From Enterobacteria phage GEC-3S, in the sequence record HE978309: DNA of 64,000 nucleotides; one strand, 5' to 3'. Every line of letters starts with the position of its first letter. The stretch's first letter is position 1. Positions 1-63,586 of the stretch are shown here, in pieces. A program made the translations under genes and the position numbers. The notes under the pieces were generated by a model. The model did no database searches. It saw only the letters and a list, made by a program, of their open reading frames with translations, and was not told the origin of the DNA.

Positions 1-2109
1 TTAAAATTTAACATTCTTAACCAGTTTCATAAAGTCTTGTGCGCGTTTGTCATTATGCAGAATACGATACCAGTTATCTACAATATCATACAGTAACGGG
101 CTATTCTCTTTAAACTTCGCACAAACTGCTTTAATTCGTTCGTTTGCTGCCGTGAATTTTTCGTCACAGATCTTTTTAGTTTCTTCGTCCATAATCCAAC
201 GAGTACGAAGGAGTAACTTGGAAACCTCTTTATTATAATGACGACCGTACAGTCTGTCAATAAATTCTGGAATACAGCGTTCTAATTCATCGTCATGAAA
301 CAACATAGTGATCACACCCAGATATTCGCCATACCCCAGATGATTGGTCTTAACCTTCTTAGCCAGACCAGCCAGCTTACCGCGAACAAATTCTAGCGCA
401 CATTCCAATTGTTCGTCAACGAGATATTTTTGTGTCTCGTTTCGAGTAATAATATACTTTGTTACCCCGAAGTAGTCAAGCGCCGTGTGTAATGTATTTT
501 CATTATAGATCGATTGACGGCTACGGCTTTCGAATGCATCACCTACGCGGAACATGTGCAAGCCTGATAACTCGCGAATCTCTGCCGCTTTCATGTGATG
601 GCTGGTTTTATGCCAACTGTCACCAATCTTTTCCATGATATACACGTTAGGCAGCTTGGGAGTAGCTTCACGTTGTGTACGCTCGGTCTTCTCCGGCTTA
701 ACTGCTTTAGCACGCAGATCATCGGCCTCGGACACTTTAATCACGGTCATTTCAGAATCATCATAATACTGTTTGATGTACTCGAAAGTCTCCATATGTT
801 TTTCGTTGTTCTGACGGAACACCAGTACCTTTTTATTGATGCCATATTCCTGGACCATGCCGTTAAGAGTCAGTGCACGCAGTTTCGGTTTATCGGTGTC
901 ATCAATAAGACACGTAATATCTTCTTTATGCATCCATACAAAATGCGTAATGTTGTATTGACTGCTAACGAAAGCAGGGCGCAATTTGCTGATTGTGTGT
1001 CGATGATGATACAGAGTATACACCTGTCCTTCTACGTCATTTGGCGAATCTTTACCCGCATTCACAAACTTATTATAGATTGCTACCGGGTCATCCCACT
1101 GCCCGATCTTACCCATCTTGCTAATAATATTGCGTTGCGTCGATGAATACTCGCTCATAAATTGCGCAAGTTTACGCTCTGTTTCAATGCTGGCGATCTT
1201 TTCTTTAACCTTTTCCAACATCATTTCATTGATTTCTGCAATGCGTTTTTCGATGTTCGCTTTAGTCTCAATTGACAAGTGAACTTCTTCACGCGATGGC
1301 ATCAGGTCCAGATCACCCAACTCAAAATTAATGTAAATGGTCTGGTGCTGTCGGTTTACAGCTTCTAACCATGTTCCGCGAACATATTCATACGGGATCG
1401 GATACTGGATCTTGCCCATGATTGCATATACCACATAGGAATCGTTATCACGTCCATTACACACATAATAATTATCAAAGCTAGGGAAATAATTAATTTC
1501 GATTGCGTTGATATTCGGTTTATGTTCCCCAAAATGACGCAGTACAAACTGTGCTTCTCGATGCCATGTCTGAATGTCTTTTTCTTTCACCGGAATAGTG
1601 ATTTTCAGACCATTGTCTTCATAGGTCGGTTCGTCGAAAATCTGCACCATTTTCGGCATAGAGTTTTGCACGAATGCGGTAAAGCCATAAGCGCGACCAT
1701 TGTAATAGTTTACGATTGTAAAGGTGTCGGTATAGCTATAAGCAGACTTCGCACCCAAACCAAAAGACCCGATATAGTCATTAGTCTGGTCTTTTGTTGA
1801 TTCAAAGTAAACCGTAAACAGTTGTTCTAATTCTTTCTTAGACGGAATACCAGTACCATAATCACGCACAGAAAAATACGGTTCGATTGCAGTCGGTAAA
1901 TGAATATCAAACGGACGATCTAAGGTTCCGGCTTCTTTGTGAGTGTCGGTAGCATTGCACGAATACTCACGGACGCAAGCACGCTCACAATATTGATAAG
2001 TGTTCTTAGAAAGCACCATAAAAGCCTTGCTACTTGCTTTCAGTGAAAAATCAACTGCACCGCTCAGGTCACTACCAAATACTTCTTCATTATCAATATG
2101 CATTTTCAT
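1..2109 (-). CDS. rIIA: rIIA protein (GHKL/Bergerat-fold ATPase-like)
   Basis: 702-aa ORF, ATG with SD GAGGA; N-terminal motifs RDYGTGIP and GSFGLGAKS; sits directly before gp39 as in T4. Confidence 0.8.
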   Translation of the reverse strand: MKMHIDNEEVFGSDLSGAVDFSLKASSKAFMVLSKNTYQYCERACVREYSCNATDTHKEAGTLDRPFDIHLPTAIEPYFSVRDYGTGIPSKKELEQLFTVYFESTKDQTNDYIGSFGLGAKSAYSYTDTFTIVNYYNGRAYGFTAFVQNSMPKMVQIFDEPTYEDNGLKITIPVKEKDIQTWHREAQFVLRHFGEHKPNINAIEINYFPSFDNYYVCNGRDNDSYVVYAIMGKIQYPIPYEYVRGTWLEAVNRQHQTIYINFELGDLDLMPSREEVHLSIETKANIEKRIAEINEMMLEKVKEKIASIETERKLAQFMSEYSSTQRNIISKMGKIGQWDDPVAIYNKFVNAGKDSPNDVEGQVYTLYHHRHTISKLRPAFVSSQYNITHFVWMHKEDITCLIDDTDKPKLRALTLNGMVQEYGINKKVLVFRQNNEKHMETFEYIKQYYDDSEMTVIKVSEADDLRAKAVKPEKTERTQREATPKLPNVYIMEKIGDSWHKTSHHMKAAEIRELSGLHMFRVGDAFESRSRQSIYNENTLHTALDYFGVTKYIITRNETQKYLVDEQLECALEFVRGKLAGLAKKVKTNHLGYGEYLGVITMLFHDDELERCIPEFIDRLYGRHYNKEVSKLLLRTRWIMDEETKKICDEKFTAANERIKAVCAKFKENSPLLYDIVDNWYRILHNDKRAQDFMKLVKNVKF

Positions 2110-8279: not shown

Positions 8280-9034
8280 TATAAACCTACCTTAGCTTTC
8301 ATCAATTCAATCCACGACGCATCAATCGGAAGCCCGTATTTCACGCGTTCTTTTTGTGCTGGCGTTAAGTTCTCATACTTAGAAAGAGATTCAATCAAAA
8401 CGCTGGTATATTTTAGCACGATTTCGGCATTGTTTGCAATAGCCTTAAGTTTTTCTTCTTTCTTGTTGATTTCGCTAAGTGCTTGCTTGAGATCTGCAAT
8501 TTTCTGATAACGTTCTTCCATACGGAAGAGAGTATTTTTAATCGCTCGCTCTGCTGCCTCTGCTTTCTCTGGTTCGTTGTGCTTTTTGTGGCGCTCGATT
8601 GCTAATTTCTTTTCTTCGATTGCCATTTCCTGATTTTTGATGCGATTCTCGTTAAGTTCGATCCACTCGATGTACTTCGCACGTAGGGCAATTTCATCAT
8701 CAGAAAGTTTACCGTTAGTTCCTAGTTCCTGGATCTCTTTAAGAGATTCGATAGTGTGATTGCCACGGAAAGAATTATATTTCAGTTTAACCGGAATTAC
8801 ATTGCCATCAACATATCCCAGATTGCAATCAATGCGCTCTAATGAGAGTCCGTCATCACCTTCACCGAAAGCCTCACCTGAATAGGCGCAATGAGTCTGA
8901 CGGTAAATGTTACGCACAGTGACTAAGCTCATAGAGAAGTCTTTGTTGCGACGTGAAGCGCCAGCCATGATAGAGTTCAGACGGAAAACAACCAGCGCCA
9001 ATTCTTCGTTAGATTTAAAAGCAAACAGTTTCAT
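8279..9034 (-). CDS. hypothetical protein with C-terminal coiled coil (T4 srd position)
   Basis: 251 aa; ATG with SD AAGGAGA; identity as Srd is positional only. Confidence 0.5.
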   Translation of the reverse strand: MKLFAFKSNEELALVVFRLNSIMAGASRRNKDFSMSLVTVRNIYRQTHCAYSGEAFGEGDDGLSLERIDCNLGYVDGNVIPVKLKYNSFRGNHTIESLKEIQELGTNGKLSDDEIALRAKYIEWIELNENRIKNQEMAIEEKKLAIERHKKHNEPEKAEAAERAIKNTLFRMEERYQKIADLKQALSEINKKEEKLKAIANNAEIVLKYTSVLIESLSKYENLTPAQKERVKYGLPIDASWIELMKAKVGL

Positions 9035-9063
9035 AATTGATTCTCCTTAGTTGGTATGTGTTT

Positions 9064-9092
9064 ATTATTGTCTATCTGGTTTGTGCTGTCAA
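9064..9092 (-). promoter_or_regulatory. early promoter (TTGACA-N17-AATAAT)
   Basis: upstream of ORF 8279-9034 with conserved leader ...AAGGAGAATCAATTATG. Confidence 0.45.
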
Positions 9093-9095
9093 CAC

Positions 9096-9599
9096 TTAAA
9101 TTAAAGAAAATTTGTAAATCTCTATCAGATCGCCGTTACACGCGTAAACTTCCTCGATCTCATCAAGGATCATGGTCGTCCCTGTCTTGTATATGCACTC
9201 TCGCTCATCTGCCAACATAGCATACAAAGACAGTCGAGTAGTCGGATTGTCATACTCTTTAGACACCACTCGGTCAATAGCATGTTCGTAATAATTCATG
9301 CAAGGCTTGGTAGGTTTTATTGCAATAATCTTTCCTGTTGCATAAACATCGGTTGCAAAGTCCTCTGCTGTTGATTGCAGTGGCGTAAAGCTCATAGGAC
9401 GCTCTACAACGAAAGAATCACCTACAATTAAGGTATCCAGCTTACGGCCTTCTCTTTTGCTCACACCGCGATACAAGGCTTCATGATGCACTAATCGCTC
9501 AGTCTTTTCAATCAATCCATTAAGGATCGACATATCGATATTTTCTTTAGAGTTCATCACTTCATCAATGATGTTAAGTTCTTCTGGTGTAAATTGCAT
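9096..9599 (-). CDS. ADP-ribosyltransferase-like protein (ModA/ModB-like)
   Basis: 167 aa; R-S-E type motifs (YRG, QSTAED, DERE); lies between srd-position gene and gp56 as modA/modB do in T4. Confidence 0.45.
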   Translation of the reverse strand: MQFTPEELNIIDEVMNSKENIDMSILNGLIEKTERLVHHEALYRGVSKREGRKLDTLIVGDSFVVERPMSFTPLQSTAEDFATDVYATGKIIAIKPTKPCMNYYEHAIDRVVSKEYDNPTTRLSLYAMLADERECIYKTGTTMILDEIEEVYACNGDLIEIYKFSLI

Positions 9600-9608
9600 A
9601 ATAAAAAA

Positions 9609-9632
9609 GCCTCCAATCTTTCGACGGGAGGC
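9609..9632 (-). terminator. intrinsic terminator hairpin GCCUCC-N12-GGAGGC + U6 that contains the SD of the downstream gene
   Basis: stem then TTTTTTATT running straight into ATG 9599. Confidence 0.5.
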
Positions 9633-9660
9633 ATAATAAAACCATTATAGAGTAGTGTCA
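9633..9660 (-). promoter_or_regulatory. early promoter (TTGACA-N17-TATTAT) abutting the terminator hairpin
   Basis: predicted start falls in or near the hairpin. Confidence 0.4.
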
Positions 9661-9668
9661 ACTAATTT

Positions 9669-10187
9669 TTAGTAGCCGCGTTCTTGACGGGCGAAGTTTT
9701 CAGCATTTTTCAGATAGTACAGAATAAAGAGTTCTTGAGCGTCAATACCCAGCGGGATCATCTTTGACAGAATGAAGTGGATCGCGTCCACAAATTCAAA
9801 TTTCACTTCAAGCTGATCTTCCGGTGACAGTTCAGAGAATTTACGCGCTCGCGCTTCTCCGTGGTTCTTTTTCCACATTTTCCAGATTGCACTTGCATCT
9901 TTACCATTGGACATTCCACCCAGCGATGTGTAAAGCTCTCGTGTTTCGTCTGCGATAGCGTCATCCATCCGTTGCATCCAATCCAGCATTTCACCGCAAG
10001 TCTCTAGCTTAGTTGGATTTGGGACCCAATCAAATTTTTCGGATAATGCAACCTGCAAACCAGTTTGCATTTCGAGCATCACCTGAAACGGATCTTTACC
10101 TTCTGCAATCGCGTGATGATATGCGGCGATAGCCGCGTTAATATCTTTTTCGTTAACCAGACCAGCACAAGAATTAAATTCTGACAT
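9669..10187 (-). CDS. 56: dCTP pyrophosphatase (dCTPase, MazG-like)
   Basis: 172 aa from ATG 10187 with SD GAGGTG; track start is GTG; T4 gp56-like sequence and position before gp61. Confidence 0.75.
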   Translation of the reverse strand: MSEFNSCAGLVNEKDINAAIAAYHHAIAEGKDPFQVMLEMQTGLQVALSEKFDWVPNPTKLETCGEMLDWMQRMDDAIADETRELYTSLGGMSNGKDASAIWKMWKKNHGEARARKFSELSPEDQLEVKFEFVDAIHFILSKMIPLGIDAQELFILYYLKNAENFARQERGY

Positions 10188-10201
10188 ATTCACCTCATTA
10201 A

Positions 10202-11230
10202 TTAAAATTTACAATATTTCATAAACCGCATTTTAGCCATCAGACCTTGTACGGTGTTCTCTTTGATATATTCCATGATCTGGTCGCGTGTAGCGCCCTC
10301 GTCCTGAATCATGGCGTTAACGTCTTTAGAATGCCACGGGCAACGGTCCCACAATACAATCTTTTCCCCTGCATTGATAAACTTTTCCAGTCGGTGCATT
10401 GTATCGGCAGACCGTGGTTCCGCATCAAGTACAAACACTCGCTGGTCTGGGAAAGGGATTTCATCTAATCCCAAAGTACCGCCAGTAATTGCACACCCGT
10501 TATCAATAAACAATGAATCGATCGGACCTTCTAAGAAATACACTGGCCTACTCGGATCGGCGCGTTCAAGACCATAGACCTTACTCGCTAACTCATGAGT
10601 TTTAATCGTCATATATTTGGTCTTTCCGTAATCCTTTCTCAATGCTCGCCCCTGAATGGATTCTATCTTGTTCTCGCGGTTAAAGATAGGAATCACTAAA
10701 CGCGGTTCAGGTTGTGGATTCTTGAAAGTATCAGCTTTAATGTGATTTGCTACCTTTTGCCATTCTCTCGTGAAATACAGAAGATCCCATTTATCGTGGG
10801 GAATGCAACGATCACTGACATACTTTATTATAGGATGATTAGCCGGAAGAGTATCTAACCTCTCGCAGAAAGGCAATGTTTGCACTTTCTTAATCTCCGG
10901 CTTTTCTACCTTTTTCAGTGGCTTGAACGTGGTGTTCTTGTTGTCGCCTTGTTCCTTCCGTCTCTCCATAAGCCATTCCCTGAATAGGTCCGGCTTATAT
11001 TGTTTAAGAAATTCACCTAACGGCTGATTGTAGTTACAGTTGAAGCAACCACAACGCAAACTATCCTTATAGGTATAGATACGGAATCGCGCTTGAGTAT
11101 GATTTTTCTTTGAGTCACCGCAGATCGGACAACTACAGACCAGCGTAAATGAGCTAGTATGCAACCGTTTAAAATTTCGTTCGCCGTATATGGCTTTTTC
11201 CGCTATTTCATAATCTGCGTAGTAAATCAT
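10202..11230 (-). CDS. 61: DNA primase
   Basis: 342 aa; N-terminal zinc-binding CSCPICGD...CGCFNC; TOPRIM-like core; T4 synteny. Confidence 0.85.
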   Translation of the reverse strand: MIYYADYEIAEKAIYGERNFKRLHTSSFTLVCSCPICGDSKKNHTQARFRIYTYKDSLRCGCFNCNYNQPLGEFLKQYKPDLFREWLMERRKEQGDNKNTTFKPLKKVEKPEIKKVQTLPFCERLDTLPANHPIIKYVSDRCIPHDKWDLLYFTREWQKVANHIKADTFKNPQPEPRLVIPIFNRENKIESIQGRALRKDYGKTKYMTIKTHELASKVYGLERADPSRPVYFLEGPIDSLFIDNGCAITGGTLGLDEIPFPDQRVFVLDAEPRSADTMHRLEKFINAGEKIVLWDRCPWHSKDVNAMIQDEGATRDQIMEYIKENTVQGLMAKMRFMKYCKF

Positions 11231-61017: not shown

Positions 61018-61046
61018 ATTATTCTATAGTCGTTTATGGTTGTCAA
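61018..61046 (-). promoter_or_regulatory. early promoter (TTGACA-N17-AATAAT)
   Basis: directly downstream of terminator 61064-61082. Confidence 0.45.
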
Positions 61047-63578: not shown

Positions 63579-63586
63579 GCTTAATC

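Follow-up and report, generated by a model that had tools for sequence, protein, structure and literature searches.

The 64,000-nt sequence of Enterobacteria phage GEC-3S (record HE978309), which is referred to as a whole as the window, carries on its minus strand a short cassette (9671-9597) between gene 56 and a modB-like ADP-ribosyltransferase gene. With a probability of about 0.7, this cassette is best explained as one of the promoter-early stem-loop (PeSL) type in which a single hairpin would have a dual role, ending transcription from upstream and hiding the Shine-Dalgarno (SD) sequence of modB, and from which the embedded promoter would escape. All parts are located on the minus strand between the gp56 stop codon (9671-9669) and the modB-like ATG (9599-9597), two genes separated by 69 nt in a region where every gene has the same orientation, and follow each other in the order TAA (gp56 stop)-AAATTAG-TTGACA-CTACTCTATAATGGTTT-TATTAT-GCCTCC-C-GTC-GAAA-GAT-T-GGAGGC-TTTTTT-ATT-ATG. 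An earlier note on this DNA had placed the elements correctly except for the strand, which is minus, and for a single base, the -35 hexamer beginning at 9661 and not at 9660.

In the proposed mechanism, RNA polymerase arriving from the gene 61-56 unit would transcribe GCCUCC...GGAGGC-U6; the hairpin with its U6 tract would act as an intrinsic terminator, and most of the gene 61/56 RNA would end just before the modB AUG. In the RNA that reads through, the SD would be locked in the stem and modB would not be translated. The gene's own promoter would use the 5' arm as an untranscribed discriminator, with a start at about G9625, and its RNA, being devoid of the 5' arm, would neither terminate at the U-tract nor hide the SD, and would be translated. 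The net effect would be that ModB is made only from its own immediate-early promoter and is shielded from upstream transcription at the levels of both transcription and translation. We infer that this serves to confine the synthesis of an early host-takeover enzyme to that promoter. Both Mod enzymes of T4, ModA and ModB, belong to the early proteins, and the former is highly toxic to Escherichia coli.

The hairpin as a proposed terminator and occluder of the SD sequence

The hairpin (9632-9609) has the fold ((((((.(((....))).)))))) with an energy of -15.0 kcal/mol, and this fold is also the ensemble centroid. The 6-bp stem and U6 tract described in the earlier note are both present, and the stem is longer than described, reaching 9 bp with the inner GUC/GAU stem that is capped by a GAAA tetraloop. 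It has the sequence properties of an intrinsic terminator: an outer stem of 6 bp, five of them G-C, the 3-bp inner stem, a U6 tract following without a gap, and a co-directional intergenic position. Its assignment as the terminator after gp56 agrees with existing records, since the identical RB49 sequence was called by TransTerm with a confidence of 100 and a terminator overlapping the ribosome-binding site is annotated in Makalu_002. The hairpin begins 36 nt past the gp56 stop codon, and a ribosome terminating there should therefore not melt it. Under a strict hairpin-plus-T-run rule four sites were found in the 64 kb of the window, all on the gene strand and the modB hairpin among them; a generic terminator scan with a loop limit of 8 missed it. 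The 79-nt fold has a z value of -2.2, with 6 of 200 shuffled sequences folding as well.

The SD sequence GGAGG, which had been proposed to lie within the 3' arm, does so and is the sole SD-like sequence before the ATG; the ATG, expected within 10 nt, follows after a spacer of exactly 10 nt. In RNA containing 9632-9627 the predicted SD pairing is 1.00. This value was obtained for RNAs starting at 9668, 9652, 9637 and 9632, all of which keep the hairpin at -15 kcal/mol, whereas RNAs starting at 9626 and 9625 gave 0.41 and 0.38, with a fold of just -2.3 kcal/mol that is no better than that of shuffled sequences (z = +0.5). The AUG itself is just 0.05-0.5 paired in upstream-initiated RNA. In a census of the 120 putative gene starts of the window, the SD pairing of 1.00 at modB compares with a median of 0.60. 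An SD-specific measure was used for modB in place of pairing over the translation-initiation region (-13 to +3), which under-scores it, the SD having been displaced to -15 to -11 by the U-tract.

The element differs from a riboswitch or a classical attenuator in having one dominant hairpin without a competing structure, and it matched no curated RNA family, an Rfam search giving no hit on the minus strand at E <= 1.

The promoter and the predicted start site

The TTGACA-N17-TATTAT promoter that had been noticed just upstream is present and matches 11 of the 12 consensus positions (promoter scan, 9661-9633). If TATTAT is taken as -12 to -7, the +1 position falls on C9626, and starts 5-8 nt after the -10 hexamer would fall on 9627-9624, so that no plausible start lies upstream of the final base of the 5' arm. 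In an alignment with 15 sister cassettes of the window the homologous +1 is G9625, matching the +1 A of the sisters. The sister consensus reads ...TATAAT-ACACCC/A-TCGAAAC...AGGAGAATCAAA-ATG, the slash preceding +1, and the modB cassette in the same alignment reads TATTAT-GCCTCCC/G-TCGAAAG-ATT-GGAGGC-T6-ATT-ATG. Common to all of them are GTTGACA, the -10 hexamer, C-rich positions -3 to -1 and TCGAAA at the beginning of the transcribed sequence. Nolan 2006 noted that C is favoured at -3 to -1 and stated that their consensus is in accord with the mapped 5' ends of early RB49 transcripts; the 3' end of their promoter model corresponds to window position 9625. Geometry (9627-9624) and sister homology (G9625) thus agree on a predicted start in or near the hairpin, as the earlier note had suggested for promoter-initiated transcripts.

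The GCCTCC of the 5' arm is at the same time the discriminator (-7 to -2 if transcription begins at G9625) and replaces the ACACCC-type C-rich discriminator of the sisters. The latter usually pairs with a G-run of the spacer, giving a hairpin around the -10 hexamer, whereas the partner in the modB cassette is the downstream SD. On this alignment, the discriminator of the modB cassette has switched its pairing partner to the SD relative to its sisters.

A generic promoter scan of 8500-11000 showed no overall enrichment (6 sites versus 5.6 expected). Over the whole window the minus strand carries 33 promoter matches of 11/12 or better, and the plus strand none. The window itself is strongly biased, 119 of the 120 called gene starts being on the minus strand, and the plus strand has just twelve promoter matches of 10/12. 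A late promoter was considered and discarded: the cassette contains no TATAAATA, and its promoter is of the early sigma-70 type.

Conservation in Krischvirus

The region has 99.5% identity with Escherichia phage RB49 and with related phages of the genus Krischvirus (RB49 coordinates are those of the window minus 179; the window numbering is that of ECD7, and that of phi1 within a base). The cassette was found in all 57 matching phage records with at least 94.5% identity, all of them of the Krischvirus type. Between six Krischvirus lineages, some with a strongly diverged gene 56, it differs at one spacer base and in having T5 or T6. Greater divergence is offered by L008, an IMG/VR contig from a metagenomic relative whose ModB is 75% identical in protein. 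Its gp56 and modB genes are 75.8% and 71.6% identical to those of the window in nucleotides, and 56% and 50% at third codon positions; the intergenic cassette keeps 65 of 70 bases, and the probability of five or fewer changes at the third-position divergence is about 1e-11. Three of the five changes are in the 5' part of the spacer, one turns the mismatched U of the internal loop into C, and one is an extra T. JSE and FL20 have further spacer changes, including loss of an internal TATAAT, and leave the rest of the cassette unaltered. By these comparisons the cassette is under strong purifying selection. A metagenome scan returned near-identical loci only.

An extended helix between UAUAAUGG and UUAUUAUG that would occlude the AUG was also evaluated and rejected as marginal at best, the AUG pairing being 0.3-0.5 and the helix being weakened in JSE. 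The spacer segment TATAATGG (9642-9649, minus strand) is complementary, with G-U pairs, to UUAUUAUG (9597-9604), which spans the start codon; it is retained in L008 and altered in JSE (AATCAATGG) and FL20 (TATCATGG). This complementarity could extend the occlusion to the AUG, and because of the changes in JSE and FL20 it is probably not a selected element.

In JSE (L037:1-772) a homing-endonuclease gene on the opposite strand stands immediately upstream of the modB cassette and replaces the gp56-proximal context. The homology of JSE to the window ends within TAAAAATTAG, 2 nt upstream of the -35 hexamer, and the cassette therefore travels with modB. Such a junction fits the view of PeSLs as junctions of modular exchange. 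The match to phage G37-3 is truncated in the same way as that to JSE. Gene 56 diverges far more than the cassette and modB between Krischvirus sublineages (comparison with L002, L004 and L005). In MIZ2 it is about 73% identical to that of the window in a crude global alignment, and 86% by BLAST over a 501-nt stretch that includes conserved parts, whereas the cassette is 100% and modB 97.8% identical. The difference in divergence indicates a mosaic boundary near the cassette.

Hairpins preceding the first mod gene in other T4-like lineages

The coupling of termination, SD occlusion and promoter choice put forward in the earlier note is supported, by sequence analogy, by equivalent hairpins with compensatory changes before the first mod gene of other lineages. 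Compared were 13 different upstream regions of the first mod gene, taken from T4, Gelderlandvirus, Dhakavirus, Kanagawavirus and relatives known from metagenomes, together with that of a small open reading frame (ORF) preceding mod in Mosigvirus; three single-protein scans supplied the loci. All those examined have a hairpin of 9-16 bp (-13 to -20 kcal/mol), with a 5' arm made up of the -10 hexamer and discriminator of the early promoter and a 3' arm consisting of the SD, the spacer and the AUG. There is no U-tract, and occlusion of the translation start is therefore the sole possible job of the helix.

Upstream of T4 modB the sequence is GTTTAC-N17-TATGAT-AGCTTCTG-aagtata-CGGAGGCT-ATCATG, in which the -10 hexamer and the bases following it pair with the SD, the spacer and the AUG in a 14-bp hairpin of -18 kcal/mol. 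The corresponding energies are -18.2 kcal/mol in Gelderlandvirus, -14.3 in Dhakavirus, and -15 to -20 in Kanagawavirus and related metagenomic phages. In the Mosigvirus phiC120 the equivalent hairpin lies before the small ORF that precedes mod. The arms differ between lineages by compensatory changes, as in the pairs TATGATAGCUUC / GGAGGCUAUCAUG, TATGATGACCUUC / GGAGGUCAUCAUG, GUUAGUAUCUCUU / AGGAGAUACUAAC and AUGACCUC / GGAGGUCAU. At every position from +4 to +11 after GGAG, two to four kinds of base pair are seen, both partners having changed; for instance, G-C or A-U is found at +5, and A-U, G-C or U-A at +6. As some of its pairs are G-U, the helix is confined to RNA of the sense strand. 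No such hairpin stands before the second mod gene (T4 modA, MX01 modA).

The T-even and Krischvirus hairpins are alike in gene family, position, placement at an early promoter and a GGAGG in the 3' arm. The former, of 13-16 bp, begin within the -10 hexamer, run through the AUG and have no U-tract, and would be pure translational occluders, whereas the Krischvirus hairpin starts after the -10 hexamer, stops at the SD and adds U6, by which it would also terminate. When 13 early-promoter-proximal genes from the first 50 kb of T4 were compared, the difference due to the promoter was largest for modB, the translation-initiation region having a predicted pairing of 0.84 in the long RNA and 0.35 in the short one. 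The primer used in a published circularisation assay of T4 modA-modB RNA is the reverse complement of a sequence starting exactly 8 nt after the -10 hexamer, which is an indirect hint as to the T4 modB start site.

Weaker versions were noticed in T4 (L036, 1-50000) at motB.2 (8161), mrh.2 (15232), 55.6 (41646) and a-gt.4 (39396), where pairing of the initiation region is 0.62-0.73 in the upstream RNA versus 0.04-0.45 in the proximal-promoter RNA. The motB.2 hairpin spans the -10 hexamer, and its 3' arm includes the SD GAGG.

Relation to known systems

Both transcription signals of the cassette are found in the supplements of Nolan 2006 for RB49. An early promoter, Pe:9496, predicted by a hidden Markov model (HMM) at 9446-9496, corresponds to window 9625-9675, and a TransTerm terminator at 9430-9453 ('modB<--56', 10 bp, confidence 100) to window 9609-9632. 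The two predictions overlap by 8 nt; the promoter, the terminator and their overlap are thus already on record.

PeSLs were defined in RB49 and phi1, where there are about 50 per genome (Arbiol 2010, PMC2839356). They consist of an AT-rich stretch with the upstream stop codon, a near-consensus sigma-70 promoter, a stem-loop taking one of five positions, including one downstream of the -10 hexamer, and an SD with ATG (PMC2839356). Promoter and terminator activities were assayed with lacZ fusions for PeSL193/192, 206/205 and 211/210 (Arbiol 2010, PMC2839356). In the PeSL papers the stem-loops are treated as terminators or attenuators and in connection with recombination, exchanges and mini-circle junctions being located inside PeSLs (PMC2839356, PMC4122927); the words 'translation', 'ribosome' and 'sequester' are absent from the text of Arbiol 2010 (PMC2839356).

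The modB cassette has the sigma-70 promoter, the AT-rich stretch TAAAAATTAG (9671-9662), the stem-loop after the -10 hexamer, the SD with ATG and the similarity to sister cassettes, and it is almost certainly among the 51-52 PeSLs counted in RB49 and phi1. It shares with PeSLs the genus, the anatomy and the sequence homology to the 15 sister cassettes of the window. It departs from the usual PeSL in the polarity of the arms, which is frequently but not obligatorily G(n)-loop-C(n) and here has GCCTCC first and GGAGGC second, in a 3' arm that is the SD, and in a U-tract between SD and ATG. It lies between the conserved genes 56 and modB, whereas the usual PeSL precedes an ORFan in a hyperplastic region.

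The second related system is that of the T4 genes e (lysozyme), soc, 49 and I-TevI, in which the SD and/or AUG is sequestered in RNAs started upstream, and a promoter within the DNA of the 5' strand of the hairpin gives shorter, translated RNAs (Uzan & Miller 2010, PMC3014915). The likeness lies in the paired SD (1.00) of the upstream RNA; the start predicted at 9626/9625, just past the 5' arm, would add to it. However, these T4 genes use late promoters (TATAAATA) that delay expression, and their hairpins are not terminators, whereas the modB cassette has an early sigma-70 promoter and a terminator. Judged from its sequence, the modB cassette would work like the T4 inhibitory hairpins without being a strict member of that class, the late promoter being missing. 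The promoter being early rather than late, the same logic would confine expression to the immediate-early burst.

In the coupled promoter-terminator pairs of bacteria, the terminator of the upstream unit and the promoter of the downstream unit share a few dozen bases. Such coupling is the subject named in the title of a preprint of 2026, 'Widespread coupling of promoters and terminators of transcription in bacteria'. In the modB cassette the promoter comes first and the terminator second, the promoter must initiate inside the hairpin, and the SD is part of the stem.

The object and both its transcription signals are therefore already catalogued, and the regulatory logic is classical for T4. 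In the searchable literature, outside which lie Desplats 2002, Miller 2003 and Tiemann 1999/2004, no description was found of an SD, a terminator and a promoter discriminator fused in one helix, or of a cross-genus occluding hairpin before the first mod gene, and no transcript-end data were found for any Krischvirus.

Alternative explanations

It is conceivable, with a rather low likelihood, that the cassette is an ordinary PeSL terminator beside a promoter, in which the SD falls within the 3' arm by accident, the overlap being of no consequence for translation. SDs are G-rich and PeSL discriminators C-rich (GGAG-type as against ACACCC or ACCCCC in the sisters), so that partial complementarity is cheap, and the PeSL papers describe terminators or attenuators, never translation. 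The complementarity found here is more than partial: a perfect 6-bp Watson-Crick partner for GGAGGC with a loop of 3-15 nt arose in just 0.05% of shuffles of the upstream 54 nt, whereas with G-U pairs allowed a 6-bp partner arose in 6%. The polarity of the arms is opposite to that typical of RB49 and phi1 PeSLs, and modB alone of the 27 promoter-proximal starts of the window has a T-run of at least 5 between the -10 hexamer and the ATG. RNAs ended at the U-tract never reach the AUG, so occlusion in this phage could be redundant; yet in five other lineages hairpins with compensatory changes occlude the SD and AUG where there is no U-tract at all.

A less probable explanation is that of a self-attenuating leader, in which modB's own transcripts would start upstream of the hairpin and give a low output of ModB, as the toxicity of Mod enzymes would favour. 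The spacer does contain a perfect TATAAT (9649-9644), from which RNA starting at about A9637 would keep the full hairpin with an SD pairing of 1.00. As an alternative -10 hexamer this TATAAT was rejected, its '-35' being poor (CTAAAA, 3/6, 17 nt) and a TG extension being absent, and it is not conserved, reading AATCAA in JSE and TATCAT in FL20, whereas TTGACA-N17-TATTAT is invariant and aligns with the sister promoters, the consensus of which agrees with mapped RB49 5' ends.

Least probable is a function mainly at the DNA level, as a recombination module with RNA effects as by-products: exchanges and mini-circle junctions do occur inside PeSLs (Arbiol 2010, PMC2839356; Comeau 2014, PMC4122927) and the JSE junction with its homing-endonuclease gene lies at the cassette, but recombination needs homology and not a particular fold, the G-U pairs of the helix exist just in the sense RNA, and it is the -35 and -10 hexamers, both arms, the SD, the U-tract and the surroundings of the ATG that are conserved, with changes accumulating in the spacer. 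Recombinational and RNA-level functions are not mutually exclusive.

Several points weigh against the dual-role hairpin with an escaping promoter. A GC-rich discriminator may weaken the stability of the open complex. If termination is efficient, occlusion of the SD adds little and may not be a selected feature. The 10-nt spacing from SD to AUG is long, and translation of the short RNA is a prediction. The score of the modB promoter in the HMM of Nolan is low, 11.3 versus 28.9 for the neighbouring srd promoter. For the Krischvirus hairpin, six lineages, 57 records and L008 gave no covariation, the stem being invariant. The hairpins of other genera that lend support are analogous ones differing in sequence; no consensus structure emerged when a MAFFT alignment across genera was analysed with RNAalifold, the helices being out of register with one another, and the SD-anchored table of pair types uses the minimum-energy fold of each sequence, which is biased towards pairing. 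In the searchable literature no 5'- or 3'-end or reporter data were found for the modB cassette.

Genes of the locus and other features of the window

The coordinates of the cassette, of the neighbouring genes and of the hairpins in other lineages are collected in Table 1. The gene downstream of the cassette, which had been described as ModA-like, is an ADP-ribosyltransferase as stated (PHROG 832, RNA polymerase ADP-ribosylase), but is annotated as ModB and not ModA in RB49, phi1 and JSE; the Arg, Ser and Glu-x-Glu columns are invariant when it is aligned with T4 ModA and ModB. The listed GTG start of the gp56 ORF (10193) is 6 nt upstream of the ATG start annotated in other records. A 34-aa ORF (9661..9557) running out of frame across the cassette was treated as spurious.

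Table 1. Positions of the cassette elements, adjacent genes and comparable hairpins (window numbering unless a locus is given)
Feature	Coordinates	Strand	Basis or remark
AT-rich stretch TAAAAATTAG, UP-element-like, including the gp56 stop codon	9662..9671	-	fits PeSL anatomy
-35 hexamer TTGACA	9656..9661	-	invariant in every aligned sequence; common to 15 sister cassettes
Promoter spacer CTACTCTATAATGGTTT, 17 nt	9639..9655	-	5' part is the sole freely varying stretch of the cassette
-10 hexamer TATTAT	9633..9638	-	invariant; within early promoter Pe:9496 predicted for RB49
Predicted start, C9626 (7 nt after -10) or G9625 (8 nt after)	9625..9626	-	geometry and sister alignment
5' arm GCCTCC, directly abutting -10	9627..9632	-	fold; invariant; only in RNAs started upstream
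Hairpin top: C mismatch, GUC/GAU 3-bp inner stem (one G-U), GAAA tetraloop, U mismatch	9615..9626	-	fold
3' arm GGAGGC; SD GGAGG at 9614-9610	9609..9614	-	fold; ribosome-binding site in terminator annotated, Makalu_002
U-tract T6, between SD and ATG	9603..9608	-	T5 to T7 among relatives
gp61 primase	11230-10202	-	upstream gene
gp56 dCTPase/dUTPase gene	9669..10193	-	ORF; Pfam dUTPase_2; PHROG 173; annotated gp56 in RB49, phi1
modB-like ADP-ribosyltransferase, 167 aa	9096..9599, ATG 9599-9597	-	ORF; PHROG 832, E = 1e-20
srd	9034-8279	-	downstream of modB-like gene
Hairpin upstream of T4 modB	L009:2629-2663	-	
Hairpins in other lineages	L013:~750-789; L014:~1370-1413; L016:~1355-1398; L015:~1170-1215; L017-L035 around 360-403		

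The srd cassette (window 9034-9095, minus strand) has a TTGACA-N17-AATAAT promoter at 9092-9064 and is without any stem-loop; 58 of its 61 bases are identical in L008. Transcripts of modB should run on into srd, as no terminator separates the two genes. An Rfam match to isrN on the plus strand (9798-9869), antisense within gene 56, scored 17.4 bits against a gathering threshold of 44 (E = 0.17) and is almost certainly due to chance.

Elsewhere in the window, canonical terminators of the hairpin-plus-T-run kind have the 5' ends of their hairpins at 63579, 61081 and 59106 (minus strand). In two cases, 61081 and 59106, a PeSL promoter (-35 at 61046 and 59056, respectively) follows immediately downstream, so that the T-run doubles as the AT-rich upstream element, in the manner of the subclass with the stem-loop upstream of -35. 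At the starts 53894, 39245 and 25462 (minus strand) the SD lies in the 3' arm of a local hairpin whose partner strand is upstream sequence, with SD pairing of 0.99, 0.80 and 0.84; CUCUUAAUCAACUGAGGG and ACCUUCUUUGGAGGGU are examples of such SD-containing hairpins. The 25462 hairpin is downstream of the -10 hexamer of its own PeSL promoter, whose transcripts would therefore retain it, and no strong promoter was found beside the starts 53894 and 39245.

Biological implications

No new field is opened by this cassette, as every ingredient has a published T4 precedent. If the mechanism holds, about 65 nt would suffice for one RNA helix to enforce both transcriptional and translational insulation while one promoter is exempt, and the cassette would be of use in synthetic biology as an insulator passing just locally initiated expression. 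It is tempting to speculate, although this is doubtful, that a promoter-embedded hairpin hiding the first mod start is an ancient device across Straboviridae that makes translation depend on the gene's own promoter, that Krischvirus upgraded it to a promoter-terminator-occluder, and that some PeSL stem-loops likewise serve in translational insulation. The mod genes sit downstream of long early and replication-gene transcripts, and the mechanism, if true, would explain the restriction of the Mod ADP-ribosyltransferases to the first minutes of T4-like infection. It would also add a translational dimension to PeSLs, which have so far been discussed as terminators and recombination modules.

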